Assembly: GCA_965204465.1 (NCBI GenBank) | Contig: OZ241995.1 | Span: 1,087,839 to 1,151,838 of the forward strand | Length of the DNA stretch: 64,000 bases | Direction: 5' to 3' | From: Leptospiria bacterium | GTDB taxonomy: Bacteria > Spirochaetota > Leptospiria > Turneriellales > CBDBES01 | Shown: positions 4,015 to 46,868 of the stretch, one piece after another | How positions within the stretch are numbered: position 1 is the first letter of the stretch | How the letters are laid out: each line of letters begins with the position of its first letter | Translations under genes and position numbers: made by a program | The notes under the pieces: model-generated | Databases searched by the model: none | Seen by the model: only the letters and a program-made list of their open reading frames with translations | What the model was told of the DNA's origin: nothing

Positions 4015-4025
4015 ATGGAGAATAT

Positions 4026-6114: not shown

Positions 6115-6120
6115 TCTATA

Positions 6121-6639
6121 ATGAGAAAGCAAAATAAAGTAAAGCAGCTACAAAGAAACAGTGAACACAGGAATGCTCTTTTAAAAGGAATGGCAGAGAG
6201 CTTATTCTACCATGAAAGAATTACAAGTACAGTTGCCAAAATCAAGACAGTAAGACGATTCAGCGAAAAACTGATCACCCGCGCTAAGAAGAATTTAGAA
6301 CAAAATATTACTCAAGAGAGTAAACTGCATAACATCAGACTGGTTAATAGATACATAAAAAACAAAGAAGTAATAAGAAAATTATTCCAGGATATCATCG
6401 TTCGTAATAAAGATAGAAATGGTGGATATACCAGAATAATTAAGTTAGGTTTTAGAAATTCTGATAAATCTGAAATGGCATTGTTGGAATTGGTGAATAA
6501 AAAAGATATTGCAGTTTTAAAAAGCGAACGCAAAGAAATGAGGTCTAATTTTTCAAAGAAAAAGAAAGGGAAATCTTTGATAGAGGATTCTAAGAAGCTT
6601 GATGAAAAAAATAAGATTGATGAAAAAAAGGAAACCTGA
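6121..6639 (+). CDS. rplQ: 50S ribosomal protein L17, with a Lys/Glu-rich C-terminal extension
   Basis: Contains LQRNSEHRNALLKGMAESLFYHERITST, then GGYTRIIKLGFR. About 50 extra charged residues at the C-terminus. Confidence 0.9.
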   Translation: MRKQNKVKQLQRNSEHRNALLKGMAESLFYHERITSTVAKIKTVRRFSEKLITRAKKNLEQNITQESKLHNIRLVNRYIKNKEVIRKLFQDIIVRNKDRNGGYTRIIKLGFRNSDKSEMALLELVNKKDIAVLKSERKEMRSNFSKKKKGKSLIEDSKKLDEKNKIDEKKET

Positions 6640-31431: not shown

Positions 31432-31948
31432 CCAGATTTCTATCCGTTTTCTAAAGCTCTTAAATTCCCTAACAGTCCGAGGTAAAAGACTTTCGTCTCT
31501 ATTTCTAATACTTCAAAATACTTAAAGGCACTTTGGTATTACATGTCTCATTTTGGGTCAGTCTTGCGACTATGAATATTATTATTGCCTTTTACCTCAA
31601 TAATAAAATAGTATTTATTCATTATCATTTCGCATTTCTTTTTTACAATTCCAGTATAATTGGCCTATTTCTCAATCTTCTATCATGAGTGTACTTCTTT
31701 ATTTGCATCATCAATAAAACGATAACTAAACTTATATGGCAATTTTTTTACAATTTTAATTTCCCTTTGCATTTCTTCAAATAACTTTAATTGTTTATTT
31801 TCATCTTTTATTGCATTTAATTTTACTTGATCCCATTCCTTCTCGTCATTTTTTATTATCATGTCAAGAATCTTTTGGGCTTGAATTAATAATAACCCTT
31901 CCTGAAATTACATGATCTTTACGATTTAGAAAGTAATAAACTTACTTC

Positions 31949-32254
31949 TTGTTCACCTAAAGGGCACTGCGCTGGCAGTTGCACTGCTAGCTTAGCATTT
32001 CTTTTCACCCAAGGGCACTGCGCTGGCAGTTGCACTGCTAGCTTAGCATTTCTTTTCACCCAAGGGCACTGCGCTGGCAGTTATACTGCTAGCTTAGCAT
32101 TTCTTTTCACCCAAGGGCACTGCGCTAGCAGTTGTACTGCCAGCTTAGCATTTCTTTTCACCCAAGGGCACTGCGCTAGCAGTTGCACTGCTAGCTTAGC
32201 ATTTCTTTTCACCCAAGGGCACTGCGCTAGCAGTTGCACTGCTAGCTTAGCATT
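31949..32254 (+). repeat. Array R1: about 6 tandem copies of a 51-bp GC-rich hairpin unit
   Basis: Unit TTCACCCAAGGGCACTGCGCTGGCAGTTGCACTGCTAGCTTAGCATTTCTT. Unit starts at 31960, 32011, 32062, 32113, 32164 and 32215 give a strict 51-bp period with no spacers. Confidence 0.95.
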
Positions 32255-32278
32255 CTATTCTCTTACTAACCTCTCTCT

Positions 32279-32503
32279 GTGTCATTCACCAGAGAAGAAA
32301 TAGACGAATTCTACAATACATTCAAAGAAGCCTATCTGGCTCTAGCCAGCGGAGTAAAATCCTATACGATAAACACAGGAACCAGTAGCAGGTCCGTAAG
32401 CAGAGCAGATTTACCAGAAATAAAAAAGGAAATGATGTACTGGTCTAAAATGCGCAATCCGTCAGGTGACATAGAAACCATTCAGATAGAACCCAAACTA
32501 TAA
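32279..32503 (+). CDS. Lambda gpW-like head-tail joining protein homolog (copy 1)
   Basis: 74 aa, GTG start 24 nt after R1. TREE...EAYLALASGVKSYTINTGTSSRSVSRADLPEIKKEM aligns with lambda gpW (TRQEE...[31 protein letters not shown]). The stop overlaps the next ATG (TAATG), as at phage W-B junctions. Confidence 0.7.
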   Translation: MSFTREEIDEFYNTFKEAYLALASGVKSYTINTGTSSRSVSRADLPEIKKEMMYWSKMRNPSGDIETIQIEPKL

Positions 32504-33072
32504 TGATCATTACGCATATAAAGACATACTGGAATAGATTAAGGAATATAGTAACAGGATATTATGACGCAGGACGCCGTGACATACCCTCTGTAAAGTC
32601 ATGGCAACCCAAACTATTGACCGCAGATGAAGAATACATCAAAGACTATGATCTCATAAGAGCAAGAAGTAGGGACTTAGTGCGTAACAACCATCTGAAT
32701 GTAAATAAGATCAAGGGCCAGTTATTTAGTTTTTTGCGATCAGAGGACAAGAATATGGCTGGTTATATGTCCTTTCCTGTTCAATACACACAGGAATATT
32801 ATAAGCAGCTTACGGTAGAGACATTGATCAAATCCAAAGACAGGCATGGTTTTTATCGCTATGAGTACAAAAAAGTAAGAGACAGGAATGAGGTTTTAGA
32901 TTGTACAGTATATGCAAGAGCCGCATCGATCCACCTGGGAGTCGATCATTTTACAGACCTTCAGTGGGACTATCTTAAAAAGAAAATCTTAGAAAGTAAA
33001 ACAGGATCCCTATATCATAAAAGACAAAGTTCTGCACGTGTTCAGGTCATCTCTGAAGGGATTGACGTATAA
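32503..33072 (+). CDS. Chimeric ORF: lambda-family portal N-terminal segment fused to terminase large subunit (GpA) C-terminal segment (copy 1, intact frame)
   Basis: aa ~20-70: YYDAGRRD..SVKSWQP..TADEE...IRARSRDLVRNN matches portal gpB (LRSWNP...ARADDLVRNN). aa ~85-175: GYMSFPVQYTQEYYKQLTVE...RDRNEVLDCTVYARAASIHLG matches the gpA C-terminus (GAVHFP...QQLTAEE...RRNEALDCFVYALAAL). Confidence 0.65.
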   Translation: MIITHIKTYWNRLRNIVTGYYDAGRRDIPSVKSWQPKLLTADEEYIKDYDLIRARSRDLVRNNHLNVNKIKGQLFSFLRSEDKNMAGYMSFPVQYTQEYYKQLTVETLIKSKDRHGFYRYEYKKVRDRNEVLDCTVYARAASIHLGVDHFTDLQWDYLKKKILESKTGSLYHKRQSSARVQVISEGIDV

Positions 33073-33400
33073 CAGACAAAGAGTCATAAAACAGGCAAAA
33101 CCATTGATTTTCTGGAAAAAAATCCTCACCAATTGGCACCAGATCAATTCTTTTTTGCATTAAGGTATAACTGGGTTAGAACGAAAACAGAATGCGACAC
33201 AGGGATTTTTTATTTTTTTATTAACCATCATATGTATTTATTGAAGGTGTAGGAAGTTTTTTTAAATTTTTTTGTTGACAGAATATCAAATAATAATCAT
33301 TGACTTGGATTAGACAAGCTAGCCCTAAAATTAATAAGGCTTTTGTCTTACTCTAATATCAAATAAACAAAAAGCAACAGAGTTCAGGAGGATAGTTTTT
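33073..33400 (+). promoter_or_regulatory. Conserved upstream block U1 (promoter/leader module shared by the cassettes)
   Basis: Near-identical to 35681-36026, 39340-39781 and 44401-44579. Contains TTGACA (33275-33280) and TTGACT (33300-33305) -35-like hexamers; the -10 is ambiguous. Has one 51-bp leader unit and AGGAGG (33386-33391) 9 nt before the ATG. Confidence 0.4.
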
Positions 33401-34510
33401 ATGAACAATAGTAAAAAATTTATGCCCCAAAAGTGGTTGATCATATTTTTGATGCCGTTCACTCTTTTGAGGCTTGGTTGTAGCGCTGACTCAGCTAAAT
33501 CTACGGAAAGTCCAATTAATCTGGCTCCTCCGGTTCATGAGACCATACAGGTCACCTCTCCTCCCGACGGTAGTTCCTTTGCAAAGGGAGAGAATATCGT
33601 CTTTAAATTGCAGAAAAAAGATGACAGGGATATTCGAGGGTTGAATGTTTATTTAGATGATAAAAAGGTAGATGTTAGGCATGGTGAGATGTTACCTGAA
33701 GTTTCACCAGGTGAGCATAAACTAAGGTTGGCCATAAACAACAAAACGTTAGATGAGGTGAATTTTACTGTAAAGAAATTGCCTGATGAATCAATGGAAT
33801 ATACGTTCAAATTCAAATTCAGTTACTTAAGAAGGCCATTCGATAATCTAAACTATCATCTGTTTCCAAGTGCCTGCTTACCTAGAGAAGGTATTCAAAC
33901 GAGGCTCACAAAGCAAGATGATTCCGAATGGAAAGACTTTTTACCCAATATATTCACCATGAGCAAGGAATGGAATGCCTTAACTGCTTCCTGGCAAGAG
34001 GGATGGAAAAAATATAGGCACCCTCCCTGTCTCTTGAATAGGGATAAGGCGCATGCAAATGAAGTCTTTATTGATTTCCATATAAAGGCAAACAGAAACA
34101 AGCATCTTTCTAAACCAATACGAATCAATTTTGAATATGACAGAGCATCGCTTCGTCTTAGAACCAGGCTTTTGATCCGTTCTATTTCAGAAATGCGAGA
34201 AATTCTGGGTATTAGGGACAGTATACCCAGAAGCTATCGCATAGATTTCTCAAAAAAGAGCATTCTGATTCTAAATGGTGTGCGTCTTGCCGCCACATCC
34301 GCGTTCTCGGGTTGTAATATAGTTTCTATCTATGACAACCTTGCTGCTATTTACGAATGGAATAATAAACTATACGTTATGACAAAGGCCGTAAAAGAAG
34401 AAGTATTATATGGCGTAGGCTTTTGTTTTGCAATGCTCGAAGGCTTCCATACCATCCTCATTCTTGATTACGCCAAAGACCTTCCTGTAGAGTTTATAGA
34501 GATTCCGTAG
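33401..34510 (+). CDS. Island lipoprotein paralog P1
   Basis: Signal peptide with lipobox-like LLRLGC. Ig-like N-terminal domain (VTSPPDGSSFAKGENIVF). Conserved core ACLP.EGIQTRLTKQDDSEWKDFLPNIFTMSKEWNALT. Family C-terminus DYAKDLPVEFIEIP. Strong RBS. Confidence 0.85.
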   Translation: MNNSKKFMPQKWLIIFLMPFTLLRLGCSADSAKSTESPINLAPPVHETIQVTSPPDGSSFAKGENIVFKLQKKDDRDIRGLNVYLDDKKVDVRHGEMLPEVSPGEHKLRLAINNKTLDEVNFTVKKLPDESMEYTFKFKFSYLRRPFDNLNYHLFPSACLPREGIQTRLTKQDDSEWKDFLPNIFTMSKEWNALTASWQEGWKKYRHPPCLLNRDKAHANEVFIDFHIKANRNKHLSKPIRINFEYDRASLRLRTRLLIRSISEMREILGIRDSIPRSYRIDFSKKSILILNGVRLAATSAFSGCNIVSIYDNLAAIYEWNNKLYVMTKAVKEEVLYGVGFCFAMLEGFHTILILDYAKDLPVEFIEIP

Positions 34511-34604
34511 TCTGTATTTCTCTGGAAAAGCCTACCATTGTATTTTGATCAAAGACAAGCCTAAAAATAGTGGCTTGGCAAGAGAGGATGATCCTGATCA
34601 CCCC

Positions 34605-34862
34605 TTGTTCACCCAAAGGGCACTGCACTGGCGGTTATACTGCCAGCTTAGCATTTCTTTTCACCCAGAGGGCACTGCGCTGGCAGTTGCACTGCTAGCT
34701 TAGCATTTCTTTTCACCCAAGGGCACTGCGCTGGCAGTTGCACTGCTAGCTTAGCATTTCTTTTCACCCAAGGGCACTGCGCTGGCAGTTGCACTGCTAG
34801 CTTAGCATTTCTTTTCACCCAAGGGCACTGCGCTAGCAGTTGCACTGCTAGCTTAGCATTTC
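34605..34862 (+). repeat. Array R2: about 5 copies of the 51-bp unit
   Basis: Same unit and orientation as R1. The first unit is the variant ...GGCACTGCACTGGCGGTTATACTGCC... Confidence 0.95.
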
Positions 34863-34884
34863 TTTCTCTTACTAACCTCTCTCT

Positions 34885-35109
34885 GTGTCATTCACCAGAG
34901 AAGAAATAGACGAATTCTACAATACATTCAAAGAAGCCTATCTGGCCTTAGCCAGCGGAGTAAAATCCTATACCATAAACACAGGAACCAGTAGCAGATC
35001 CGTAAACAGAGCGGATCTTCCAGAAATAAAAAAGGAAATGATGTACTGGTCTAAAATGCGCAATCCGTCAGGTGACATAGAAGCCATTCAGATAGAACCC
35101 AAACTATAA
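34885..35109 (+). CDS. gpW-like protein homolog (copy 2)
   Basis: Differs from copy 1 at 2 of 74 residues (S40N, T65A). Confidence 0.7.
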   Translation: MSFTREEIDEFYNTFKEAYLALASGVKSYTINTGTSSRSVNRADLPEIKKEMMYWSKMRNPSGDIEAIQIEPKL

Positions 35110-35680
35110 TGATCATTGCACATAAAATAAAGACATACTGGAATAGATTAAGGAATATAGTAACAGGATATTATGACGCAGGGCGTCGTGACTACCCTCT
35201 GTAAAATCATGGCAACCAAAACTATTGACCGCAGATGAAGAATACATAAAAGACTATGATCTCATAAGAGCAAGAAGCAGGGACTTAGTGCGTAACAACC
35301 ATCTGAATGTAAATAAGATCAAGGGCCAGTTATTTAGTTTTTTGCGATCAGAGGACAAGAATATGGCTGGTTATATGTCCTTTCCTGTTCAATACACACA
35401 GGAATATTATAAGCAGCTTACAGCAGAGACATTGATCAAATCCAAAGACAGGCATGGTTTCTATCGCTATGAGTACAAAAAAGTAAGAGACAGGAATGAG
35501 GTTTTAGATTGTACAGTATATGCAAGAGCCGCATCGATCCACCTGGGAGTCGATTATTTTACAGACCTTCAGTGGGACTATCTTAAAAAGAAAATCTTAG
35601 AAAGTAAAACAGGATCCCTATATCATGAAAGACAAAGTTCTGCACGTGTTCAGGTCATCTCTGAAGGGATTGACGTATAA
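35109..35680 (+). pseudogene. Portal-N::terminase-C chimeric ORF, copy 2, frameshifted
   Basis: A 1-nt deletion relative to copy 1 (GACATACCC becomes GACTACCC) gives TAA at 35202-35204. The track ORF 35225..35680 is the downstream remainder. Confidence 0.7.
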
Positions 35681-36026
35681 CAGACAAAGAGTCATAAAAC
35701 AGGCAAAACCATTGATTTTCTGGAAAAAAATCCTCACCAATTGGCACCAGATCAATTCTTTTTTGCATTAAGGTAACTGGGTTAGAACGAAAACAGAATG
35801 CGACACAGGGATTTTTTATTTTTTTATTAACCATCATATGTATTTATTGAAGGTGTAGGAAATTTTTTTTAATTTTTTTTACTTTTTTTAAATTTTTTTG
35901 TTGACAGAATATCAAATAATAATCATTGACTTGGAAAAGACAGGCTAGCCCTAAAATTAATAAGGCTTTTGTCTTACTCTAATAGCAAATAAATAAAAAG
36001 CAACAGAGTTCAGGAGGATAGTTTTT
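35681..36026 (+). promoter_or_regulatory. Conserved upstream block U2
   Basis: Same block as U1. TTGACA at 35901-35906, an extra T-rich duplication, and AGGAGG-N9-ATG. Confidence 0.4.
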
Positions 36027-37097
36027 ATGAACAACAGTAAAGAATTTATGCCCCAAAAGTGGTTGATCGTATTTTTGGTGCCTCTTGCTCTTTTATGGCT
36101 TGGTTGCACTGATGAAGCCAATACCCCCAATGAGACGAATAAAACTCAAAGGGAAGCGGGCATTAAATCCCCTGCAAATGGCAGTTCTTTTTCAAAAGGA
36201 GAAGATATTTCATTTCAATTAAGTAAAACGGATTTGGATATGCAAGGCATAGATCTTTATCTGGATAGGCGAAAAATTGATATTCATCAAGGGGATATGC
36301 TACCTGAACTTTCAGTAGGTGAGCATAAACTAAGGTTGGACATAAGCAACAAAACGGTGGATGAGGTGATTTTTACTGTAAAGAAATTGCCTGATGAATC
36401 AATGGAATATATGTTCAGGTTCAAATTCAGTTCTTTAAAGGGGGATGGTTACCTATATCCAAGTGCCTGTTTACCTAAGAAAGGTATTCAAACGAGGCTC
36501 ACAAAACAAGATGATTCCGAATGGAAAGATTTTTTACCCAATATATTCACCATGAGCAAGGAATGGAATGCCCTGACTGCTTCCTGGCAAGAGGGAAGGG
36601 GAGAATATGGCCCCCCTCCCTGTCTCTTGAATAGGGATAAGGTGCATGCAAATGAAGTTTTTATTGACTTCTATATAAAGGCAAACAGAAGCAAGCATCT
36701 TTCTAAACCAATAAGGATCAATTTTGAATCTAACAGGAGTTCACTTGGTCGTAGAGCCGGGCTTTTGATCCGCTCTATTTCAGAAATGCGAGAAATTCTG
36801 GGTATTAGGGACAGTATACCCAGAAGCTATCGCATAGATTTCTCAAAAAAGAGTATTCTGACTCTAAGTTATTTTCGTGTCGTACCCGAGTCAGGAGGTT
36901 GTCATCTAACTTCTATTTATGACAACCTTACTGCCATTTACGAATGGAATAATAAATTGTACGTTATGACGAAGGCCGTAACAAATGAAATCGTATATCC
37001 TGAAGGCCCTTGTTTTGCAATTTTGACAGGCTTCAGTAGAAGCCTAATTCTTGATTACGCCAAAGACCTTCCTGTAGAGTTTATAGAGATTCCGTAG
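36027..37097 (+). CDS. Island lipoprotein paralog P2 (patchwork of P4-like and P1-like segments)
   Basis: The signal peptide plus TDEANTPNETNKTQREAGIKSPANG... matches P4. VKKLPDESMEY and LLIRSISEMREILGIRDSIPRSYRIDF match P1. Confidence 0.85.
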   Translation: MNNSKEFMPQKWLIVFLVPLALLWLGCTDEANTPNETNKTQREAGIKSPANGSSFSKGEDISFQLSKTDLDMQGIDLYLDRRKIDIHQGDMLPELSVGEHKLRLDISNKTVDEVIFTVKKLPDESMEYMFRFKFSSLKGDGYLYPSACLPKKGIQTRLTKQDDSEWKDFLPNIFTMSKEWNALTASWQEGRGEYGPPPCLLNRDKVHANEVFIDFYIKANRSKHLSKPIRINFESNRSSLGRRAGLLIRSISEMREILGIRDSIPRSYRIDFSKKSILTLSYFRVVPESGGCHLTSIYDNLTAIYEWNNKLYVMTKAVTNEIVYPEGPCFAILTGFSRSLILDYAKDLPVEFIEIP

Positions 37098-37148
37098 CCC
37101 GTATTTTGATCAAAGACAAGCCTAAAAATAGTGGCTTGGCAAGAGAGG

Positions 37149-38225
37149 ATGATTTTAATAAAGAAGATGATACGAAATATTCTGTTTACCTTTCTGTTAC
37201 TACCTTATTTTTTAGGGTTTAGTTGCACAGACAACTCCAATATTGCTGATAACAATTCAGACGAATATGATGTGGTTCCTCAAAGGGAAGCGGGCATTAA
37301 ATCCCCTGCAAATGGTAGTTCTTTTTCAAAAGGAGAAGATATTTCATTTCAATTAAGTAAAACGGATTTGGATATGCAAGGCATAGATCTTTATCTGGAT
37401 AGACGAAAAATTGATATTCATCAAGGGGATATGCTACCTGAACTTTCAGTAGGTGAGCATAAACTAAGGTTGGACATAAACAACAAAACGGTGGATGAGG
37501 TAACCTTTAATGTAACAGAAGCGGAATATACGTTCAGATTCAAATTCAGTTATTTAAATGCGGATGGTGGCCTATATCCAAGTGCCTGTTTACCTAAGAA
37601 AGGTATTCAAACGAGGCTCACAAAACAAGATGATTCCGAATGGAAAGATTTTTTGCCAAATATATTCACCATGAGTAAGGAATGGAATGCCTTAACTACT
37701 TCCTGGCAAGAGGGAAGGGAAGAATATGGCCCCCCTCCCTGTCTCTTGAATGAAGATAAGGCGCATGCAAATGAAGTTTTTATTGACTTCTATATAAAGG
37801 CAAATAAAAGTAAGCATCTTTCTAAGTCAATATGGATCAATTTTGAATATCGTAGAATATCGCGTTATAATAATTTTAAGGCCGGGCTTTTGATCCGTTC
37901 TCTTTCAGAAATGCAAGAACTTCTGGGTTATCGTAACAGGATACCCGAAAGATATCGTATAGATTTTTCAAAAAAGAGTATTTTGACTCTAAAGGGCCCT
38001 ACTATTGATGGATGCGAAATCAGTGGTTGTGGTTTCGCTTCTGCTTATGACATCCTTGCCGCCATTTACGAGTGGAATAATAAATTATACATTATGACAA
38101 AAGTCGCACCAAAAGAAATATTATATCCCGTGGGTCCTTGTACTGCATGCTTGCAAGGTTCCAATGCCATCCTAATTCTGGATTACGCCAAAGACCTTCC
38201 CTTAGAGTTCATAGAGATTCCGTAG
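37149..38225 (+). CDS. Island lipoprotein paralog P3 (own signal peptide, no upstream U block)
   Basis: MILIKKMIRNILFTFLLLPYFLGFSC signal/lipobox. The start is ambiguous (37131 GTG, 37149 or 37167 ATG). The 5' end is built on a truncated copy of the conserved 3' flank of P2. From QREAGIK onward it is almost identical to P4. Confidence 0.8.
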   Translation: MILIKKMIRNILFTFLLLPYFLGFSCTDNSNIADNNSDEYDVVPQREAGIKSPANGSSFSKGEDISFQLSKTDLDMQGIDLYLDRRKIDIHQGDMLPELSVGEHKLRLDINNKTVDEVTFNVTEAEYTFRFKFSYLNADGGLYPSACLPKKGIQTRLTKQDDSEWKDFLPNIFTMSKEWNALTTSWQEGREEYGPPPCLLNEDKAHANEVFIDFYIKANKSKHLSKSIWINFEYRRISRYNNFKAGLLIRSLSEMQELLGYRNRIPERYRIDFSKKSILTLKGPTIDGCEISGCGFASAYDILAAIYEWNNKLYIMTKVAPKEILYPVGPCTACLQGSNAILILDYAKDLPLEFIEIP

Positions 38226-38294
38226 CCCGTATTTTGATCAAAGACAAGCCTAAAAATAGTGGCTTGGCAAGAGAGGATGATCCTGATTCACCCC

Positions 38295-38524
38295 TTGTTC
38301 ACCCAAAGGACACTGCACTGGCAGTTGCACTGCTAGCTTAGCATTTCTTTTCACCCAAGGGCACTGCGCTAGCAGTTGCACTGCTAGCTTAGCATTTCTT
38401 TTCATTTCTTAATGCTGCTTCTTAGCTAATGTTAGCATTCTTATTTGTTCACCCAAGGGCACTGCACTAGCAGTTGCACTGCTAGTTTAGTATTTCTTAA
38501 TGAAATTTTTATTTACAGCATTCT
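38295..38524 (+). repeat. Array R3: about 3 degenerate copies of the 51-bp unit, interrupted by AT-rich insertions
   Basis: Two good units (38295-38400), then interrupted or decayed units ending in ...AGCATTCTATTCTCTTAC, as in R1. Confidence 0.85.
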
Positions 38525-38546
38525 ATTCTCTTACTAACCTCTCTCT

Positions 38547-38771
38547 GTGTCATTCACCAGAGAAGAAATAGACGAATTCTACAATACATTCAAAGAAGCC
38601 TATCTGGCTCTAGCCAGCGGAGTAAAATCCTATACGATAAACACCGGAACCAGTAGCAGGTCCGTAAGCAGAGCAGATTTACCAGAAATAAAAAAGGAAA
38701 TGATGTACTGGTCTAAAATGCGCAATCCGTCAGGTGACATAGAAACCATTCAGATAGAACCCAAACTATAA
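38547..38771 (+). CDS. gpW-like protein homolog (copy 3)
   Basis: Protein identical to copy 1. Confidence 0.7.
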   Translation: MSFTREEIDEFYNTFKEAYLALASGVKSYTINTGTSSRSVSRADLPEIKKEMMYWSKMRNPSGDIETIQIEPKL

Positions 38772-39339
38772 TGATCATTACGCATATAAAGACATACTGG
38801 AATAGATTAAGGAATATAGTAACAGGATATTATGACGCAGGACGTCGTGACTACCCTCTGTAAAGTCATGGCAACCCAAACTATTGACCGCAGATGAAGA
38901 ATACATCAAAGACTATGATCTCATAAGAGCAAGAAGTAGGGACTTAGTGCGTAACAACCATCTGAATGTAAATAAGATCAAGGGCCAGTTATTTAGTTTT
39001 TTGCGATCAGAGGACAAGAATATGGCTGGTTATATGTCCTTTCCTGTTCAATACACACAGGAATATTATAAGCAGCTTACGGTAGAGACATTGATCAAAT
39101 CCAAAGACAGGCATGGTTTTTATCGCTATGAGTACAAAAAAGTAAGAGACAGGAATGAGGTTTTAGATTGTACAGTATATGCAAGAGCCGCATCGATCCA
39201 CCTGGGAGTCGATCATTTTACAGACCTTCAGTGGGACTATCTTAAAAAGAAAATCTTAGAAAGTAAAACAGGATCCCTATATCATGAAAGACAAAGTTCT
39301 GCACGTGTTCAGGTCATCTCTGAAGGGATTGACGTATAA
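38771..39339 (+). pseudogene. Portal-N::terminase-C chimeric ORF, copy 3, frameshifted
   Basis: Same 1-nt deletion as copy 2, giving TAA at 38861-38863. The remainder is ORF 38884..39339. Confidence 0.7.
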
Positions 39340-39781
39340 CAGACAAAGAGTCATAAAACAGGCAAAACCATTGATTTTCTGGAAAAAAATCCTCACCAAT
39401 TGGCACCAGATCAATTCTTTTTTGCATTAAGGTAACTGGGTTAGAACGAAAACAGAATGCGACACAGGGGATTTTTTATTTTTTTATTAACCATCATATG
39501 TATTTATTGAAGATGTAGGAAATTTTTTTAAATTTTTTTGTTGACAGAATATCAAATAATAATCATTGACTTGGAAAAGACAGGCTAGCCCTAAAATTAA
39601 TAAGGCTTTTGTCTTACTCTAATAGCAAATAAATAAAAGGCTTATTAAAAATAGGGCTTTTGTCTTACTCTAATATCAAATAAATAAAAGACTTATTAAA
39701 AATAAGGCTTTTGTCTTACTCTAATAGCACATAAATAAAAGGCTGACTAAAAAGTAGAAGATATATTAGGAGGATATACTT
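39340..39781 (+). promoter_or_regulatory. Conserved upstream block U3 with a triplicated leader unit
   Basis: TTGACA at 39541-39546. Three 51-bp leader units (39602, 39653, 39704). AGGAGG lies before ATG 39782. Confidence 0.4.
39602..39754 (+). repeat. Leader repeat: 3 x 51 bp, AT-rich
   Basis: Unit (A/G)AGGCTTTTGTCTTACTCTAATA(G/T)CA(A/C)ATAAATAAAAG(G/A)CTTATTAAAAAT. There is one copy in U1 and U2, three here, and two at 44464-44565. Confidence 0.85.
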
Positions 39782-40258
39782 ATGAGATTAAGTTTAAATT
39801 ATGGAAGATTTTCATTTAAAAATTTATTTTTTGTCGCAGTATTAGGTTTGACTATCACCTTTTCTGCATGTATACAGAGTGGGGATACTTTGGGGAATTA
39901 CTCAGATAGCAAAGCTGACATTACATTGATTGATAAAAGTAGTCGGCTATTAAGCGAATCTTTTGTATCTTTGCCTCCTGATGATGTCAATGAAGATGAA
40001 GCAATTCTGATACAAGAGAATAAAGTCGAGCATGCAGAACCTGATTATAATCTGGTAAAAAATTCAAATGGTCTAAACGGAGTAGAAGGGTGGAGGGTAA
40101 CCAAGGAAAAGGGAAATGGTTTTTTTTATCAGGGAAAAAACTCTTCTAATCTGGAATCTGGCAAGTACTTTGGCACATCTTATGGATGGAGTGTCAAAAG
40201 ACAGATCATTGATTTGGAAGCGGAGTGCGTTATGTTGTCTTTAAGCATGCAGGCGTAA
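39782..40258 (+). pseudogene. Lipoprotein signal plus the N-terminal half of an FBA (F-box-associated, glycan-binding type) domain; disrupted 5' part of the protease gene
   Basis: Signal peptide with lipobox-like TFSAC. NLVKNSNGLNGVEGW...GKYFGTSYGWSVKRQIIDLEAE parallels FBXO2 NLLRNPCGEEDLEGW...KKYFASSFEWCRKAQVIDLQAEG. The frame ends 34 nt into the next ORF. Confidence 0.6.
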
Positions 40259-42150
40259 GCAGCAGAGAAGAACCGCAAGAAGATTATTACGGCACACGAA
40301 TGAGGAATGCTACATTAAACATAAGTTTTCCACAAGAATTTTCTATGAAAGAAAGCTCTGTTATTGCAGAAGCTCTGCAAAACAAATTAAATGAGATGTC
40401 AGATCAAGAGATGATACCCGTTTCGGTTCTATGCAGGGATCCGCTGGTTAATGAAAATGATCTTTCCGCCTTTTCCGCTGGTTTCGAGGTGGACCAGGGC
40501 AATATCAAAAATGTTCAACTGGCTTCAAGTGATGAAGAGACGGTATCTGATCTAGAGCTGGTTTCTACTTTAGAGGAACAAGTAGAGATCATGAACCAAA
40601 AAGTCCTTTCTCAGATAAATCAAATGAAAAAGAAAAAAATTGAGGCTTATAGAGAAGATATTGATGAACTCACAGAGATGACGAATATAGATATAATGGG
40701 TCGTTCCTCTGGTGTAGCAGAATCCATTGGATTCGTTAAAGTTGAATTGAGCAAGGCAGAGATAGAAACCATAGCTCAATATGAAAATATCGTACAGACA
40801 ATAGATGTGCAATCAGAAGCAGACAATGACTTGGATTCTGCCTATACAGAGACAAAAATGGACCAGGCCCATCATGTCGAACATGATTCTGCCAGACAAA
40901 CAGGTTCGGGAGTCAATGTCTATATGTCTGAGGCGGATAATAACTGCTTTGACCCAAACACATATAATTTTGGGACCTGGATTCCAGGATATATTCCAGA
41001 TGTTGCATCAACAGGAAGGTATTGGGAGGATCGCCCTACTAGTGATCATGCTACACAAGTTGCTCAATCTCTAGTAGTTACTGCTCCTCATATTACTTTA
41101 TATTGTTCTACTAAGAGTTATCTATTCTCTCGCAGTTTAAAAGATCGGATACATATCATCAACTATTCTTGGACGGATCCCGGGTATGAAGGGGGTGCTG
41201 CTAATACTACTAGCTGGTTACCGCAAGACTCCTTATCCGATAGGTATGTTTGGAGAGATCGGATAGCTATATTTAAGAGTGCTGGTAATAATTGTAATAT
41301 TCCTGAGGGACACTGTCAAGTTACTTCCCCTGGAAAGGCGCACAATGTTATCACGGTTGGTGCTTATGATGATAGAACAGATAGGATGGGTACTTTTTCC
41401 CGTACAGTTGATCCAGAAACAAATGCGATCAAACCTGAGATCGTAGCCCCTGGTGTTTCTCTCCGATTTCCTGCTTCCGTTAATGCAAGTGAAGTCACAT
41501 CTTGGAATAATCATCTTCTTAGCGGTACTAGCTATTCCACTCCTCTGGCGGCCGGTATGGCTGCCTCTGTTACATCAAGATATACTCTACTCAAAAAGCA
41601 ACCTCATTTGATCAAGGCCAGTATGCTTGCTATGTCCGCCAAAGACATTCAAAGCGGGACTAGTGCCGATGGTGTAGGTGCCATTCAATGGAATGAGGAT
41701 GGAAATTATCGTTACTGGTCGAACTATAATAATAATTTTCTGGTAACAGGCGGCTGGAAATTGATTCATGAATATAATGTTTATAGAAACAACAAAAAAG
41801 TCAGGGTCGTCATATCATGGCTCAATGATGTAAATAAATGTGACAGTAGCACAGCTAAATTATGTATGGATATAGATTTAAAAGTTCATGGTCCTAATAA
41901 TGAATATATAGATCATGACTACCGGAATAGCCATGATGATGAATATGCTCCAAATAACATAACGAACAATAACTGGAGAATGGTAGAGTTCACGACAAGA
42001 AAAACAGGTAAATATAAGGTCTATGTATGGCGCCGTAGTAACTGGCATACAAAGACGAAAAGATGCTTTCTGTGGATTTGTTGGGGGCATAAGAAGCATT
42101 ACAGTAAAGTCAACCTGGGTCTTAGAATTGCCTACATTGATTATGATTAA
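40225..42150 (+). CDS. Subtilisin-like (S8) serine protease with an FBA C-terminal remnant, an I9-like propeptide and a C-terminal beta-sandwich domain
   Basis: The N-terminus VRYVVFKHAG...DYYGTRMRNATLNI matches the FBA C-terminus (VRFVRFEHGG..WFGARVTNSSV). Candidate Asp segment GSGVNVYMSEAD, His in SDHATQVAQ, Asn in FKSAGNN, Ser in SGTSYSTPLAAGMAA. No signal peptide in this frame. Confidence 0.8.
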   Translation: MRYVVFKHAGVSSREEPQEDYYGTRMRNATLNISFPQEFSMKESSVIAEALQNKLNEMSDQEMIPVSVLCRDPLVNENDLSAFSAGFEVDQGNIKNVQLASSDEETVSDLELVSTLEEQVEIMNQKVLSQINQMKKKKIEAYREDIDELTEMTNIDIMGRSSGVAESIGFVKVELSKAEIETIAQYENIVQTIDVQSEADNDLDSAYTETKMDQAHHVEHDSARQTGSGVNVYMSEADNNCFDPNTYNFGTWIPGYIPDVASTGRYWEDRPTSDHATQVAQSLVVTAPHITLYCSTKSYLFSRSLKDRIHIINYSWTDPGYEGGAANTTSWLPQDSLSDRYVWRDRIAIFKSAGNNCNIPEGHCQVTSPGKAHNVITVGAYDDRTDRMGTFSRTVDPETNAIKPEIVAPGVSLRFPASVNASEVTSWNNHLLSGTSYSTPLAAGMAASVTSRYTLLKKQPHLIKASMLAMSAKDIQSGTSADGVGAIQWNEDGNYRYWSNYNNNFLVTGGWKLIHEYNVYRNNKKVRVVISWLNDVNKCDSSTAKLCMDIDLKVHGPNNEYIDHDYRNSHDDEYAPNNITNNNWRMVEFTTRKTGKYKVYVWRRSNWHTKTKRCFLWICWGHKKHYSKVNLGLRIAYIDYD

Positions 42151-42170
42151 AGAATCTGGTTTTTAAAACA

Positions 42171-42635
42171 ATGACCATTTTTACTAAAAATATTTTTTTA
42201 TTTTATTTTACCTTTAATAGTATTCTATGCTCGGAAATTGTAGATGATCAAACATCTAGATCAGATAAAGGTCTTCCTGTCTTCATTGAAGAGATCATTG
42301 CCCCTGAACAGGTTTCCTCTTCTGAAACAAGTTTTGATATTCGATTGAAAGGCAATACTTCTAAATCTGATATAAATTGCTCAAAAATTCAATACAATGC
42401 TACAGTGACGGAAACCAGTCTAAATTTATCCGTGGAAAGAGTTGCTCCGCCGCCCTTTCGGCTAGACGATGGTTCTATTTCTACTGCTTGCAATGATCAA
42501 GTAGTCCCTTTTGGTGAAAGGATTTATACGGTAAAGGCAAATCCTCATTTTGCTTTGGGTGACTTTTTGATCACTATTCAAAATCCAGATTATCAAGGTG
42601 ATGATCTTCAAAAAGTAGTGAAGATCGTCGAATAA
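42171..42635 (+). CDS. Small secreted/lipoprotein S1 downstream of the protease
   Basis: Hydrophobic N-terminus ending in SILC. Paralog of S2, sharing the blocks SSSETSFDIRLKGNTSKSDINC and VPFGER.YTVKANP.FALGDF.ITIQNPD..GDDLQKVVKIVE. Confidence 0.65.
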   Translation: MTIFTKNIFLFYFTFNSILCSEIVDDQTSRSDKGLPVFIEEIIAPEQVSSSETSFDIRLKGNTSKSDINCSKIQYNATVTETSLNLSVERVAPPPFRLDDGSISTACNDQVVPFGERIYTVKANPHFALGDFLITIQNPDYQGDDLQKVVKIVE

Positions 42636-42711
42636 TGATCTTTCAAAAGAAACAGAATTTAATTGAAAGAAATCCATTCAATTCATCTATGATGGATCAA
42701 ATATCCCCCCC

Positions 42712-42813
42712 TTGTTCACCCAAATGGCACTGCACTAGCAGTTGCACTGCCAGCTTAGCATTTCTTTTCACCCAAGGGCACTGCGCTGGCAGTTGCACTG
42801 CCAGCTTAGCATT
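42712..42813 (+). repeat. Array R4: 2 copies of the 51-bp unit, cut mid-unit
   Basis: Ends ...GCCAGCTTAGCATT and is joined directly to AATATAATGTTTATAG, which equals 41771 onward. Confidence 0.9.
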
Positions 42814-43220
42814 AATATAATGTTTATAGAAACAACAAAAAAATCAGGGTCGTCATATCATGGCTCAATGATGTAAATAAATGTGACAGTAGCACAGCTA
42901 AATTATGTATGGATTTAGATTTAAAAGTTCATGGTCCTAATAATGAATATATAGATCATGACTACCGGAATAGCCATGATGATGTATATGCTCCAAATAA
43001 CATAACGAACAATAACTGGAGAATGGTAGAGTTCACGACAAGAAAAACAGGTAAATATAAGATTTATGTATGGCGCCGTAGTAACCGGTATTTATCAGTG
43101 AGGCTATGCAGCCCATTTTTTTCTAGTCGGCCTTTTTTTGTGGGGTGTCGTTCTACAGAAATCAGGGTCTACAATAAAGTCAACCTGGGTCTTAGAATTG
43201 CCTACATTGATTATGATTAA
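42814..43220 (+). pseudogene. Duplicated 3' fragment of the S8 protease gene (no start; corresponds to 41771-42150)
   Basis: In-frame YNVYRNNKKIRVVISWLNDVNKCDSSTAKLCMDLDLKVHGPNN... is preceded by TAA. It is identical to the parent except for a replaced in-frame segment (43086-43175 versus about 42043-42105). Confidence 0.85.
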
Positions 43221-43632
43221 GTGGATCATTTTTTCTTCTTTAATTTTTGTTTCTTCTTCATGCTCTGAGTCTCCTGAGTCTGAGACTCAATATAGCATTA
43301 AGAATATCTATATTGAAGAAGTGGATGTTCCCAGAGAAGTTTCCTCTTCTGAAACAAGTTTTGATATTCGATTGAAAGGCAATACTTCTAAATCTGATAT
43401 AAATTGCGAAGAAATCCGATATGAGTCTATAATAAGCAAAACAAGTCTGAAATTAGCAGTAAAAGGATATAGTTATCCTAGACTATGTAGTGCATTGATA
43501 GTTCCCTTTGGCGAAAGGGTTTATACGGTAAAGGCAAATCCTTATTTTGCTCTGGGTGATTTTATGATCACCATTCAAAATCCAGATCGTGCAGGTGATG
43601 ATCTTCAAAAAGTAGTGAAGATCGTCGAATAA
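43213..43632 (+). CDS. Small lipoprotein S2 (paralog of S1)
   Basis: MIKWIIFSSLIFVSSSC signal/lipobox. The ATG overlaps the stop of the protease fragment. The track start at 43138 is an upstream read-in. Confidence 0.65.
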   Translation: MIKWIIFSSLIFVSSSCSESPESETQYSIKNIYIEEVDVPREVSSSETSFDIRLKGNTSKSDINCEEIRYESIISKTSLKLAVKGYSYPRLCSALIVPFGERVYTVKANPYFALGDFMITIQNPDRAGDDLQKVVKIVE

Positions 43633-43708
43633 TGATCTTTCAAAAGAAACAGAATTTAATTAAAATAAATCCATTCAATTCATCTATGATGGATCAAATA
43701 TCCCCCCC

Positions 43709-44035
43709 TTGTTCACCCAAATGGCACTGCACTAGCAGTTGCACTGCCAGCTTAGCATTTCTTTTCACCAAAAGGGCACTGCGCTGGCAGTTGCACTGCT
43801 AGCTTAGCATTTCTTTTCACCAAAAGGGCACTGCGCTGGCAGTTGCACTGCTAGCTTAGCATTTCTTTTCACCCAAGGGCACTGCGCTGGCAGTTGTACT
43901 GCCAGCTTAGCATTTCTTTTCACCCAAGGGCACTGCGCTAGCAGTTGCACTACTAGCTTAGCATTTCTTTTCACCCAAGGGCACTGCACTGGCGGTTATA
44001 CTGCCAGTTTAGCATTTCTTTTCACCCAGAGGGCA
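43709..44035 (+). repeat. Array R5: about 6.4 copies of the 51-bp unit
   Basis: Same unit and orientation. Point variants between units, e.g. CACCAAAAGGG, TTGTACTGCC, TTGCACTACT. Confidence 0.95.
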
Positions 44036-44400
44036 TAGAAAAATGGAACACCATTCTATTTTCTGTTTTTTCTTCTTCCTAATTTACTCTTGAGTAAGAC
44101 GAACGGTTGGGAACGCAGGCAAGGATGCCTGCGAAATGGAGCGTCTTTGCCATGGATGCAAAACATGGATGTTTTGCAAGGCTGCCTGACCTTACCCCAA
44201 GCACCTGACATCCTATCAGGTCGCTTGCCCCTACAAAACATCCGTGTTTTGTAGGTTACAGGATGTAACCCGTCCAGCCGCTTGTGCAGACGAAGTCTGT
44301 GAACTTCCATGTGAAAAAAGAAAGAAAAATAGCTATTCTTTTTACACAAAAAGACCTGTGCCCGTAGGGTGAAATGGGTAGCAAAGTAGCAGGTTTTTTT
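44036..44400 (+). other. GC-rich multi-hairpin element, copy A (possible structured RNA or MITE-like element)
   Basis: A series of perfect hairpins: CGCAGGCA-AGGA-TGCCTGCG, GCAAAACAT-GG-ATGTTTTGC, ACCTGA-CATCCTA-TCAGGT, CTACAAAACA-TCCG-TGTTTTGTAG and GGTTACA-GGA-TGTAACC. It sits where the gpW module sits in cassettes 1-3. Confidence 0.6.
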
Positions 44401-44579
44401 TGTTGACAGAATATCAAATAATAATCATTGACTTGGAAAAGACAGGCTAGCCCTAAAATTAATAAGGCTTTTGTCTTACTCTAATAGCACATAAATAAAA
44501 GGCTTATTAAAAATAGGGCTTTTGTCTTACTCTAATATCAAATAAACAAAAAGCAACAGAGTTTAGGAGGATAGTCTTT
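44401..44579 (+). promoter_or_regulatory. Conserved upstream block U4 (3' part only) with a duplicated leader unit
   Basis: Starts at TGTTGACAGAATATC (TTGACA 44403-44408). Two 51-bp leader units (44464, 44515). TAGGAGG-N9-ATG. Confidence 0.4.
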
Positions 44580-45644
44580 ATGAACAATAGTAAAAAATTT
44601 ACATTCCAAAAGTGGTTGATCATATTTTTGATGCCTCTTGCTCTTTTATGGCTTGGTTGCACTGATGAAGCCAATACCCCCAATGAGACCAATAAAACTC
44701 AAAGGGAAGCGGGCATTAAATCCCCTGCAAATGGCAGTTCTTTTTCAAAAGGAGAAGATATTTCATTTCAATTAAGTAAAACGGATTTGGATATGCAAGG
44801 CATAGATCTTTATCTGGATAGGCGAAAAATTGATATTCGTCAAGGGGATATGCTACCTGAACTTTCAGTAGGTGAGCATAAACTAAGGTTGGACATAAAC
44901 AACAAAACGGTGGATGAGGTAACCTTTAATGTAACAGAAGCGGAATATACGTTCAGATTCAAATTCAGTTATTTAAATGCGGATGGTGGCCTATATCCAA
45001 GTGCCTGTTTACCTAAGAAAGGTATTCAAACGAGGCTCACAAAACAAGATGATTCCGAATGGAAAGATTTTTTGCCAAATATATTCACCATGAGTAAGGA
45101 ATGGAATGCCTTAACTACTTCCTGGCAAGAGGGAAGGGAAGAATATGGCCCCCCTCCCTGTCTCTTGAATGAAGATAAGGCGCATGCAAATGAAGTTTTT
45201 ATTGACTTCTATATAAAGGCAAATAAAAGTAAGCATCTTTCTAAACCAATATGGATCAATTTTGAATTTCATAGAGAACTGCTTAGTAATAATTTTAAGG
45301 CCGGGCTTTTGATCCGTTCTCTCTCGGAAATGCAAGAACTTCTGGGTTATCGTAACAGGATACCCGAAAGATATCGTATAGATTTTTCAAAAAAGAGTAT
45401 TCTGACTCTAAAGGGCCCTACTATTGATGGATGCGAAATCAGTGGTTGTGGTTTCGCTTCTGCTTATGACATCCTTGCCGCCATTTACGAGTGGAATAAT
45501 AAATTATACATTATGACAAAAGTCGCACCAAAAGAAATATTATATCCCGTGGGTCCTTGTGCTGCATGCTTGCAAGGTTCCAATGCCATCCTAATTCTCG
45601 ATTACGCCAAAGACCTTCCTGTAGAGTTTATAGAGATTCCGTAG
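44580..45644 (+). CDS. Island lipoprotein paralog P4
   Basis: The N-terminal ~115 aa match P2 and the rest matches P3. Lipobox-like LLWLGC. C-terminus DYAKDLPVEFIEIP. Confidence 0.85.
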   Translation: MNNSKKFTFQKWLIIFLMPLALLWLGCTDEANTPNETNKTQREAGIKSPANGSSFSKGEDISFQLSKTDLDMQGIDLYLDRRKIDIRQGDMLPELSVGEHKLRLDINNKTVDEVTFNVTEAEYTFRFKFSYLNADGGLYPSACLPKKGIQTRLTKQDDSEWKDFLPNIFTMSKEWNALTTSWQEGREEYGPPPCLLNEDKAHANEVFIDFYIKANKSKHLSKPIWINFEFHRELLSNNFKAGLLIRSLSEMQELLGYRNRIPERYRIDFSKKSILTLKGPTIDGCEISGCGFASAYDILAAIYEWNNKLYIMTKVAPKEILYPVGPCAACLQGSNAILILDYAKDLPVEFIEIP

Positions 45645-45713
45645 TCTGTATTTTGATCAAAGACAAGCCTAGGAATAGTGGCTTGGCAAGAGAGGATGAT
45701 CCTGATTCACCCC

Positions 45714-45783
45714 TTGTTCACCCAAAGGGCACTGCACTGGCAGTTGCACTGCCAGCTTAGCATTTCTTTTCACCCAGAGGGCA
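45714..45783 (+). repeat. Array R6: about 1.4 copies of the 51-bp unit
   Basis: Has the same start (CCCTTGTTCACCCAAAGGGCACTGCACTGG) and the same exit junction (CACCCAGAGGGCATAGAAAAATGG) as R5. Confidence 0.85.
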
Positions 45784-46264
45784 TAGAAAAATGGAACACC
45801 ATTCTATTTTCTGTTTTTTCTTCTTCCTAATTTACTCTTGAGTAAGACGAACGGTTGGGAACGCAGGCAAGGATGCCTGCGAAATGGAGCGTCTTTGCCA
45901 TGGATGCAAAACATGGATGTTTTGCAAGGCTGGGGATTGGGTTACAGGATGTAACCACCCAGCCTAACTTCTATGGCAAAGTAGCGGGTTTTTTTCACCC
46001 TACGGCACAGGTCTTTGTTTCTTTCTTTTTTTTACATGTAAAACATGGATGTTTTACATGGCTGCCTGACCTTACCCCAAGCACCTGACATCCTATCAGG
46101 TCGCTTGCCCCTACAAAACATCCGTGTTTTGTAGGTTACAGGATGTAACCCGTCCAGCCGCTTGTGCAGACGAAGTCTGTGAACTTCCATGTGAAAAAAG
46201 AAAGAAAAATAGCTATTCTTTTTACACAAAAAGACCTGTGCCCGTAGGGTGAAATGGGTAGCAA
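45784..46264 (+). other. GC-rich multi-hairpin element, copy B, with a ~130-bp internal partial inverted duplication
   Basis: Equals copy A plus an insert at 45933-46062. That insert contains CACCCTACGGCACAGGTCTTT...ACATG, the inverted repeat of CATGT...AAAGACCTGTGCCCGTAGGGTG at 46188-46250. Confidence 0.6.
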
Positions 46265-46524
46265 TACAGGAGAAGACTAAAAAAATAAAAAAGATCTGCA
46301 CCCGTAAATGAGAAGAAAAGTGGAATGCTATTCTAATTATAAGATAAAGTATAACAAATTGCTAGCCTTTTGGGGAGATTACTTGTGCCCACTGCAAATT
46401 ATTTTTTTACTTAAAAATTTTCCTCTGGAATTTTATCTCTTAACTAATTCTATTAGAAAAAAGAATTAGAAAAAGTAGAATAAATTTTTTGTTGAAACAA
46501 AAATATAATGTGACATAATAATTT

Positions 46525-46868
46525 CGGAGACGGCGGGATTTGAACCCGCGTCCTGTCATGCAATCGAAAGCTTTCTACATGTTTAGTTTGTATTTTATTT
46601 TAGAGAAGACCATCTCTACAAACAAAGTAAGGACTTCCTTAGCAAGAATGTCTCGGTTTTATACCCTTGCCATATAAAACCCACTCTCTATAAAAGTTAG
46701 CCATTATATCCGCCTAGAGAGAAACAGATATAACAGCGCTTGGCAAATTATGCAGCCAAAGCGTAATTTAAGTTGTCGTCGTTTATTATAGACTTCCCTT
46801 TTTAGAAGAGGGCGCTTCACATGCTTTTCTAACCATTGGATCATGACAGTCGAAGCCAATTCGTCCCC
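46525..46868 (-). ncRNA. ssrA: tmRNA (SsrA)
   Basis: The minus strand begins GGGGACGAATTGGCTTCGAC and ends GCGGGTTCAAATCCCGCCGTCTCC (tRNA-like T-arm and acceptor). The tag frame reads ...N-D-D-N-L-N-Y-A-L-A-A-stop (stop at 46748-46750). No CCA is encoded. Confidence 0.9.

Follow-up and report, generated by a model that had tools for sequence, protein, structure and literature searches.

A 64,000-nucleotide stretch from a Leptospiria bacterium (Spirochaetota, Turneriellales; GenBank assembly GCA_965204465.1, contig OZ241995.1, positions 1,087,839 to 1,151,838 of the forward strand), referred to here as the window, contains a 14.6-kb island of secreted-protein and lipoprotein genes in which a 51-bp tandem repeat unit is found in six intergenic arrays. 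We examined the arrangement of this unit, the folds available to it, its state in a relative, and the explanations that could account for it. The arrays are confined to the island, which extends from ~31.9 to 46.5 kb and is flanked by a DUF488 gene with queuosine-biosynthesis genes on one side and by the abutting 3' end of a one-piece tmRNA gene (46525-46868, - strand) on the other. The rest of the window is occupied by housekeeping genes, among them those for SecY, ribosomal proteins, RpoA, Dxs, Mfd and SppA.

Four paralogues of ~355-369 amino acids form the principal gene family of the island: the lipoprotein-like L1 (33401-34510, + strand), and L2 (36027-37097), L3 (37131-38225) and L4 (44580-45644), each with a lipoprotein-type signal. 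L1, L3 and L4 carry the repeat unit in their 3' flank, and L2 is directly followed by L3. The family matches Big_7 weakly and is rare, with only 11 homologues in 5.8 billion proteins. A phage remnant is present in three copies. The first (32279-33072, + strand) consists of a gpW-like head-tail adaptor gene (32279-32503, phrog_118) and a C-terminal fragment of a terminase large subunit (32503-33072), and the same pair recurs at 34885-35680 and 38547-39339. Also adjoining the arrays are a gene for a 154-amino-acid secreted protein of no known family (42171-42635, + strand) and its 164-amino-acid paralogue (43138-43632).

At 31946-32254, Tandem Repeats Finder reports 6.0 copies of a 51-bp repeat with 96% matches, the consensus of which is a rotation of the unit described for 31949-32254 in a first-pass annotation made from the letters alone. 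The tandem unit claimed there does exist, and five further arrays of it are found in the window. Counted by hand, the six arrays hold 23 full units, 14 of 51 bp and nine of 52 bp, plus two truncated units that read TTCACCCAGAGGGCA. All lie on the + strand, head to tail throughout and in the same direction as the upstream genes, with the unit starting ~80-110 nt 3' of the upstream stop codons. Mean column identity in the unit alignment is 94%, and the substitutions in the core are transitions without exception (10/10). A 34-nt core pattern allowing up to three mismatches has 20 matches in the window, all on the + strand, with 0 expected by chance, and a shorter core pattern has 23. A covariance model run with filters off recovered all 23 units between 31.9 and 45.8 kb, and the remaining ~50 kb of the window had none. 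Searches with exact and degenerate patterns of the unit gave 0 matches in genome, metagenome and viral contig collections, and Rfam offered chance miRNA-like matches only, with no family for the unit or for the hairpin element described below.

The sites hold 1, 2, 2(+1), 5, 6 and 6 units. Array 1 (31952-32258), at the left edge of the island, has six units, one of 52 bp and five of 51 bp as judged from Tandem Repeats Finder, the unit list and the alignment, and exits into the first gpW-like gene. Array 2 (34608-34865), downstream of L1, has five units, and its units 1 and 2 carry both of the ancestral flanking-repeat variants discussed below, CACCCAAAGGGCA and CACCCAGAGGGCA. Array 3 (38298-38498), downstream of L3 and upstream of the third gpW copy, is composed of two units (to 38404), a 47-bp degenerate stretch, and one more unit that is itself degenerate (38448). 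The two units of array 4 (42715-42817) are a copy of the start of array 5 (43712-44035), which lies downstream of the 164-amino-acid secreted-protein gene and has six units followed by a truncated TTCACCCAGAGGGCA. Array 6 (45717-45783), downstream of L4, has one unit and a truncated unit.

As + strand RNA the unit folds into a single hairpin, CUG.GCUGGCAGU-UGC-ACUGCUAGC.UAG, in which a 9-bp stem is extended by three outer pairs and followed by CAUUUCUUUU; an example from one unit lies at 32018-32046, defined by minimum free energy (MFE) and pair counts. The first-pass annotation had proposed a different fold, in which a central GCAGT pairs with either an upstream or a downstream ACTGC as mutually exclusive hairpins and a TGCTA-GCT-TAGCA hairpin follows. 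Both folds were scored on each of 28 aligned units (21 distinct), namely the 23 of the window and five from the relative L001. The long hairpin, at -15.7 to -16.8 kcal/mol, is the RNA MFE structure in 25 of the 28 units and is lower in energy than the two-hairpin model in 26. As single-stranded DNA (ssDNA) it is lower in 17 of 28. In the consensus variant, which is the most amplified one, the two-hairpin fold is slightly better as ssDNA (-8.1 vs -6.3 kcal/mol) because this variant has a G.T position. Folding both ways thus left the earlier model marginally best as ssDNA for the consensus variant and worse as RNA nearly everywhere. The complementarities on which it was built, ACTGC/GCAGT/ACTGC and TGCTA/TAGCA, are indeed present in the consensus. 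The upstream ACTGC hairpin and the TGCTA/TAGCA hairpin, taken together, amount to a fold that competes with the long hairpin and is specific to the most amplified variant. The downstream ACTGC pairing is real but is merely the core of the 9-bp stem with its three outer pairs, the strongest pairing in the unit, which had been missed.

The pattern of variation separates the two folds further. In the long hairpin, 97.2% of alignment cells are paired, two pairs show changes on both sides (20-40, as GC/AU/GU, and 23-37, as GC/GU/AU), and just 6-7 of 500 column shuffles reach these pairing and covariation values; covariation support for this hairpin is modest. For the two-hairpin model 330 of 500 shuffles do equally well, and the compensatory changes expected in its stems are not seen. 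The T37C change disrupts its second hairpin in 10 of the 21 distinct units without compensation, and the TTATAC and TTGTAC variants disrupt its GC/GC extension in six of the 21; in the long hairpin these TGC/TAT/TGT variants sit in the loop. Variants had also been said to cluster in the stems, but in either model 6-7 of 24 stem columns vary, as against 12-13 of 28 unpaired columns.

A comparison of the window with L001, an 8.95-kb metagenome contig (ENA ERZ25068762) reached via the lipoprotein family, bears on the history of the arrays. Its intergenic elements are 98-100% identical to those of the window, and its L genes 85-94%. L001 has five tandem L paralogues with exactly one unit behind each, and the layout is the same per paralogue: a common 60-nt 3' flank, one unit, a truncated unit, and a GC-rich hairpin element. 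The units, located by a relaxed pattern, read CAGTTTAGCA. Array 6 of the window has this same single-copy layout, and the last full unit of array 5 is identical to the single-copy units of L001. Since a single unit stands behind each L001 paralogue and array 6 shares that layout, the single hairpin segment is the older state and the arrays are local expansions. At two of the five L001 sites (489/541 and 7371/7423), a 15-nt direct repeat, TTCACCCAAAGGGCA ... TTCACCCAGAGGGCA, brackets the unit at a distance of 52 bp. Array 2 opens with exactly both of the L001 repeat variants in the same order, and its later units, minus one A, are 51 bp long.

In each of the five single-copy units of L001 the long hairpin contains a single G.U wobble and is free of mismatches, and the + (sense) strand is favored over the - strand by 2-3 kcal/mol. 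The two-hairpin model gives about -0.5 to -2.2 kcal/mol in four of the five. Copy number differs between the relatives, with one unit at each of the five L001 sites and one to six per site in the window, counted over all sites of each. The earlier suggestion that the unit be sought in related genomes bore fruit as single copies in L001; the more distant L homologues L002-L004 have no unit, also when searched with the covariance model, and a lipoprotein alignment profile search of genome contigs gave no relatives. The statement that this is not a random minisatellite holds up, in that a hairpin is present, is older than the arrays, and differs in copy number between relatives.

The junctions of the arrays were compared with the segmental duplications of the island. 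A 2.6-kb tandem duplication, comprising an array, gpW, the terminase fragment, a promoter and an L gene, aligns 32004-34592 to 34608-37153, and a third, partial copy follows it. A 1043-bp tandem duplication copied the start of array 5 as array 4; at its junction, GCATT|AATATAATG, the array meets the interior of the S8 peptidase gene across a CAT microhomology. Where arrays exit into the hairpin element, they do so through the ancestral flank, which is also present in L001. These alignments indicate that the array junctions are identical by descent through the 2.6-kb and 1.04-kb duplications. It had been claimed that every array opens with the same variant unit and exits at one of two fixed junctions. 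The opening variant is common to five of the six arrays; array 1 opens with GCGCTGG, and the GCACT variant is also found internally or last (38448, 43970). Three exits exist rather than two, namely gpW, the hairpin element, and the duplication junction TTAGCATT|AATATAATG at 42813, and the gpW exit of array 2 differs in sequence. The start of the gpW-like open reading frame (ORF) (GTG TCA TTCACCAGAG..., 32285-32294) resembles the unit start and the truncated TTCACCCAGAGGGCA (44021-44035), a likeness that may reflect microhomology in phage-array joining or chance.

The GC-rich hairpin element is found in the window at 44020-44374 (+ strand) and, in a second copy, at 45768-46254, and in L001 at 541-1100, 2297-2690, 3876-4340, 5545-6160 and 7423-7830. 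It has at least six near-perfect stem-loops, in an AT-rich genome, and is 98-100% conserved between the window and L001, whereas the adjacent genes differ by 6-15%; sub-blocks of it are present or absent between copies. Its ends are imperfect inverted repeats, TTTCACCCAGAGGGCATAG / CTGTGCCCGTAGGGTGAAA (19 nt, 79%, at 44020-44038 / 44356-44374), with an inner 20-nt inverted pair. The left arm is a truncated unit, and the array lies just outside this arm with 15 nt in common. The element could be a miniature inverted-repeat transposable element (MITE)-like element or a structured RNA.

Constant modules flank the coding regions of the island. The 5' modules, made up of a promoter region and a Shine-Dalgarno (SD) sequence, lie at 33267-33400, 35893-36027, 39533-39780 and 44395-44580 and are common to the L paralogues and to an unrelated operon for an F-box-associated (FBA)-domain lipoprotein and an S8 protease. 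The 3' modules, made up of CCCCTTGTT plus the unit, lie at 34539-34610, 38228-38300, 42690-42715 and 45647-45717 and are common to the L genes and the 154/164-amino-acid secreted-protein genes. The flanks are thus constant, and the coding cassettes enclosed by them differ. The 5' module also contains a second, unrelated AT-rich tandem repeat of 51-bp period (AATAAGGCTTTTGTCTTACTCTAATAGCAAATAAATAAAAGGCTTATTAAA) immediately before the AGGAGG sequence that precedes the L genes and the FBA gene, with three copies at 39599-39753, two at 44455-44545, and one each at 33330-33380 and 35960-36010.

Further features of the island and its surroundings are noted here. The FBA ORF (158 amino acids, 39782-40258) and the S8 peptidase ORF (641 amino acids, 40225-42150) overlap in different frames; they may represent two genes or one gene with a frameshift. 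Eukaryote-like FBA domains suggest an intracellular lifestyle, and L002, from a related organism, carries ankyrin repeats. In the phage remnant, the gpW-like adaptor ORF (74 amino acids) is intact, the nearest phage matches of the terminase fragment are Wolbachia WO terminases at 37-47% amino acid identity, and the gene order, with W before the end of the terminase, is permuted relative to lambda-like phages. The gpW-like and 154-amino-acid proteins have no homologues outside the source genome, as searched for the gpW-like protein among 5.8 billion proteins. The tmRNA tag is of NYALAA type, and SD sequences are AGGAGG. That the repeat-rich secreted/lipoprotein island (31900-46525) adjoins the tmRNA 3' end places it at a classic integration site; no direct repeat of the tmRNA end was seen at the island. 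An origin of the unit from the tmRNA 3' end, as an att-site remnant, was ruled out, the tmRNA terminus being without similarity to the unit. Outside the island, 58793-60688 (- strand) encodes a 631-amino-acid Eco57I-type methylase with a TaqI_C domain and a weak match to an IS200-like Y1 transposase (residues 126-222, E = 1.6e-7). Its neighbors are an AbiEii-like AAA protein and an HSDR_N protein, and the group may be a defence islet.

We favor the explanation that the repeat is a lineage-specific intergenic minisatellite that grew from a terminator-like 3' stem-loop, and we put the probability of this explanation as a whole at roughly 0.6. Its account of origin and expansion is very probably correct, and the proposed RNA-level function as a terminator-like or 3'-stabilizing structure is tentative. 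The ancestor, as the comparison with L001 shows, was one 52-bp segment flanking every gene of the secreted-lipoprotein family on its 3' side, containing a stem-loop of 9 bp plus three outer pairs and a U-rich sense-strand tail, and bracketed by the 15-nt repeat TTCACCCAAAGGGCA ... TTCACCCAGAGGGCA. Direct repeats spaced like these, 52 bp apart, are ideally suited to slipped-strand mispairing or unequal crossing-over. Either process, acting first between the direct repeats and later between units, would have raised the number to two to six copies at some sites, and the later 2.6-kb and 1.04-kb duplications would have copied arrays together with their junctions. The hairpin is most likely the 3'-end RNA stem-loop of the upstream gene, either intrinsic-terminator-like or exonuclease-blocking, so that additional copies would be redundant hairpins and probably near-neutral. 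The arrays, in turn, would provide long homology tracts at cassette borders and favor further duplication and deletion. A terminator/antiterminator switch was ruled out, the upstream alternative hairpin being nearly absent in ancestral units.

Several observations weigh against this explanation, of which the terminator role is the weakest step. The folding energy of a single unit is unexceptional relative to shuffles (z = -1.2), the covariation rests on few, related sequences, and the shuffle control ignores kinship. Seven array units have uncompensated A.C mismatches, and within the arrays the + strand is not always the more stable one. Symmetric changes in a palindrome would be expected of a dimeric DNA-binding site as well. 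Directly behind the 9-bp stem the tail reads UUAGCAUU (or UUAGCAUUUCUUUU), as distinct from the CAUUUCUUUU that follows the extended stem, and because of this a simple terminator consensus scan accepts just one of the 23 units. Canonical terminators are not enriched in the window and flanking housekeeping DNA (10 vs 13.3 expected; 11 vs 9.8), and it may be doubted that the organism relies on them. With respect to the junctions, three upstream contexts (the island edge, the L genes and the 154-amino-acid genes) join the unit at nearly the same point, ~12 nt before it, and a shared left join point would also be expected from a site-specific process.

One alternative is a composite MITE-like element, in which the unit would be a repeated inner module comparable to boxB, the array and hairpin element together one (formerly) mobile unit, and the first 15 nt of the unit its terminal repeat. 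The inverted repeats of the element, both outer and inner, and the identity of its left arm with the start of the 51-bp unit are what such a structure would contain, and BOX elements do have variable, independently folding boxB arrays (PMC3049150). The element also acts as a present/absent block: gpW-terminase replaces it in three modules, and block variants are seen in L001. The inverted repeats are imperfect, however, and the weak covariance-model matches to the arms (E 0.3-0.9) are not significant. Moreover, no target-site duplication is visible and no transposase is nearby, and in the window, L001 and L002 the element is confined to the spaces separating L-family genes, with none at unrelated loci there, a distribution that tandem gene duplication explains. 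We consider this origin unlikely. It is improbable, too, that the intergenic module (unit hairpin 5', hairpin element in the middle, promoter/SD 3') is a dedicated cassette-boundary system, with the hairpin and 15-nt repeat as the crossover site through which coding cassettes beside the tmRNA gene would be exchanged, duplicated and deleted. These would comprise the lipoprotein paralogues, the FBA-lipoprotein/S8-protease operon, the small secreted proteins and the gpW/terminase remnants. If this were true, the locus would resemble an integron, without an integrase, and would diversify host-interaction proteins.

The symmetry of the unit invites readings at the DNA level. Its core is a near-perfect palindrome (9-3-9, GCTGGCAGT-TGC-ACTGCCAGC) that could serve as a dyad-symmetric site for a dimeric protein, with arrays at about five helical turns nucleating a centromere, iteron or silencer complex. 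The 51-52-bp period is near 5 x 10.5 bp, the symmetric changes at columns 20/40 and 23/37 preserve the dyad, and there is precedent in sopC, in which SopB binds a 16-bp inverted repeat in each of 12 direct repeats of 43 bp (PMC3177203). Yet all five ancestral single units break the DNA dyad with a G.T that is valid in RNA as G.U, and L001 has only one site per gene. The setting is a chromosomal island of secreted-protein genes, and Pfam and PHROGs scans of island ORFs of at least ~100 amino acids and window ORFs of at least 120 amino acids found no ParA/ParB, Rep or helix-turn-helix gene; taken together, such a site would be decidedly improbable. The same scans found no integrase or transposase, which bears on the first-pass proposal in its REP/BIME or attC form, with the exclusive and second hairpins taken as a switch or an ssDNA recognition structure for a recombinase or transposase. 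The consensus complementarities and the ssDNA MFE of the consensus variant fit that proposal, as do the position of the arrays at cassette borders, the three left contexts joined at nearly one point, and the constant 5' and 3' modules around different cassettes. The junctions, however, are accounted for by segmental duplication, the fold is nearly absent in four of the five ancestral units, and the units stand head to tail in one orientation and one island and lack GTTRRRY/RYYYAAC cores. The sole Y1_Tnp-like match lies 13 kb off, inside the methylase, with no units around it. With its stems broken and free of covariation, the proposal is largely refuted by the variant pattern and is highly improbable. 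Finally, one frame per strand is free of stops across runs of 51-bp units, and the repeat could code a 17-residue peptide, FTQGHCAGSCTASLAFL on the + strand or RNAKLAVQLPAQCPWVK on the - strand. We give this almost no credence: the 52-bp units (nine of 23) shift the frame, the open frame on the + strand lacks a start codon and is not in register with gpW, the TTATAC variant introduces a stop into the one on the - strand, and the single copies of L001 lie between genes.

The arrays record the birth of a minisatellite in unusual detail, from a single repeat-flanked hairpin in one genome to as many as six units in a relative. They also provide a ready-made, high-resolution strain marker, as a variable-number tandem repeat (VNTR), for a poorly sampled lineage of host-associated, small-genome bacteria. 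The arrays mark the borders of recent duplications in the secreted/lipoprotein island beside the tmRNA gene, and are therefore likely contributors to copy-number change of genes that probably face the host.

Comparison with known systems places the unit among ordinary repeats. It resembles attC sites, imperfect palindromes at the 3' ends of cassettes, in that constant modules here flank different cassettes. It lacks the R''/L''-L'/R' cores (RYYYAAC/GTTRRRY) of these sites, however: its only GTT-containing heptamers are GTTGCAC, GTTATAC and GTTGTAC, none of which fits GTTRRRY, and RYYYAAC is absent from both strands. In further distinction from integrons, the units are tandem, no intI, attI or Pc accompanies the arrays, and the cassettes are mostly paralogues with their own conserved upstream promoter module and AGGAGG SD sequence. 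F plasmid sopC is likewise composed of direct repeats in the ~43-51-bp range, each with an inverted repeat (PMC3177203), but differs from the unit described here, which has a chromosomal setting, no partition genes in the Pfam and PHROGs scans, and G.U-type asymmetries in its ancestral copies. The position of the unit in gene 3' flanks recalls repetitive extragenic palindromic (REP) sequences and bacterial interspersed mosaic elements (BIMEs), extragenic imperfect palindromes that can stabilize upstream mRNA. REPs are dispersed genome-wide and mobilized by REP-associated tyrosine transposases (RAYTs), and BIMEs alternate in orientation, whereas the units here are strictly head to tail, in one orientation and one island, with no RAYT beside them.

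The mycobacterial interspersed repetitive unit (MIRU)-VNTRs are within-genome minisatellites whose copy number varies among strains (PMC3635867). The present unit is similar to them in size and intergenic position. MIRUs are roughly 50-100 bp long, intergenic in operons and oriented with the genes, and they occupy ~40 dispersed loci; some have short ORFs coupled to flanking genes, and they are not known to be defined by a strong hairpin. The closest analogues appear to be the pneumococcal boxB arrays and, closest of all, the Wolbachia VNTR-141/105 repeats. In the pneumococcal BOX element (boxA-boxB(n)-boxC), the 45-nt boxB forms variable tandem arrays and its own stem-loop, and BOX elements are intergenic and affect the expression of neighboring genes; SPRITE, a Rho-independent-terminator-like repeat, is enriched at gene 3' ends (Croucher et al. 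2011, PMC3049150). Like boxB, the unit folds independently and adjoins an element with inverted-repeat ends. BOX and SPRITE occur at many scattered, unrelated loci and are regarded as MITE-like, whereas the unit is found in one gene-family context in the sequence examined. It has no sequence similarity to BOX, SPRITE, the Wolbachia VNTRs or MIRUs.

The Wolbachia VNTRs differ in sequence and in period (105/141 bp vs 51 bp), and the unit differs from them in occupying six sites, which are associated with a paralogous gene family and phage remnants, and in having a single-copy ancestor at a defined position behind each gene. The organisms differ as well, in that Wolbachia tmRNA is the two-piece alphaproteobacterial form and the tmRNA here is one-piece. 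In both cases, nevertheless, intergenic tandem repeats are found in the small genome of a host-associated bacterium. Each VNTR-141/105 period includes a hairpin of ~23 bp, whose palindromic stem is 9 bp long, together with 15-bp internal direct repeats; the periods number from one to ~7 among strains and are 98-99% conserved. Their expansion has been ascribed to slipped-strand mispairing promoted by the hairpin, along with concerted evolution (Riegler et al. 2012, PMC3287509). The unit has the properties of a minisatellite, being a head-to-tail repeat within the 10-100-bp range, of high identity, whose copy number varies between loci and between relatives. Rather than a new type of recognition structure, it is an ordinary kind of bacterial minisatellite, seeded by a hairpin.

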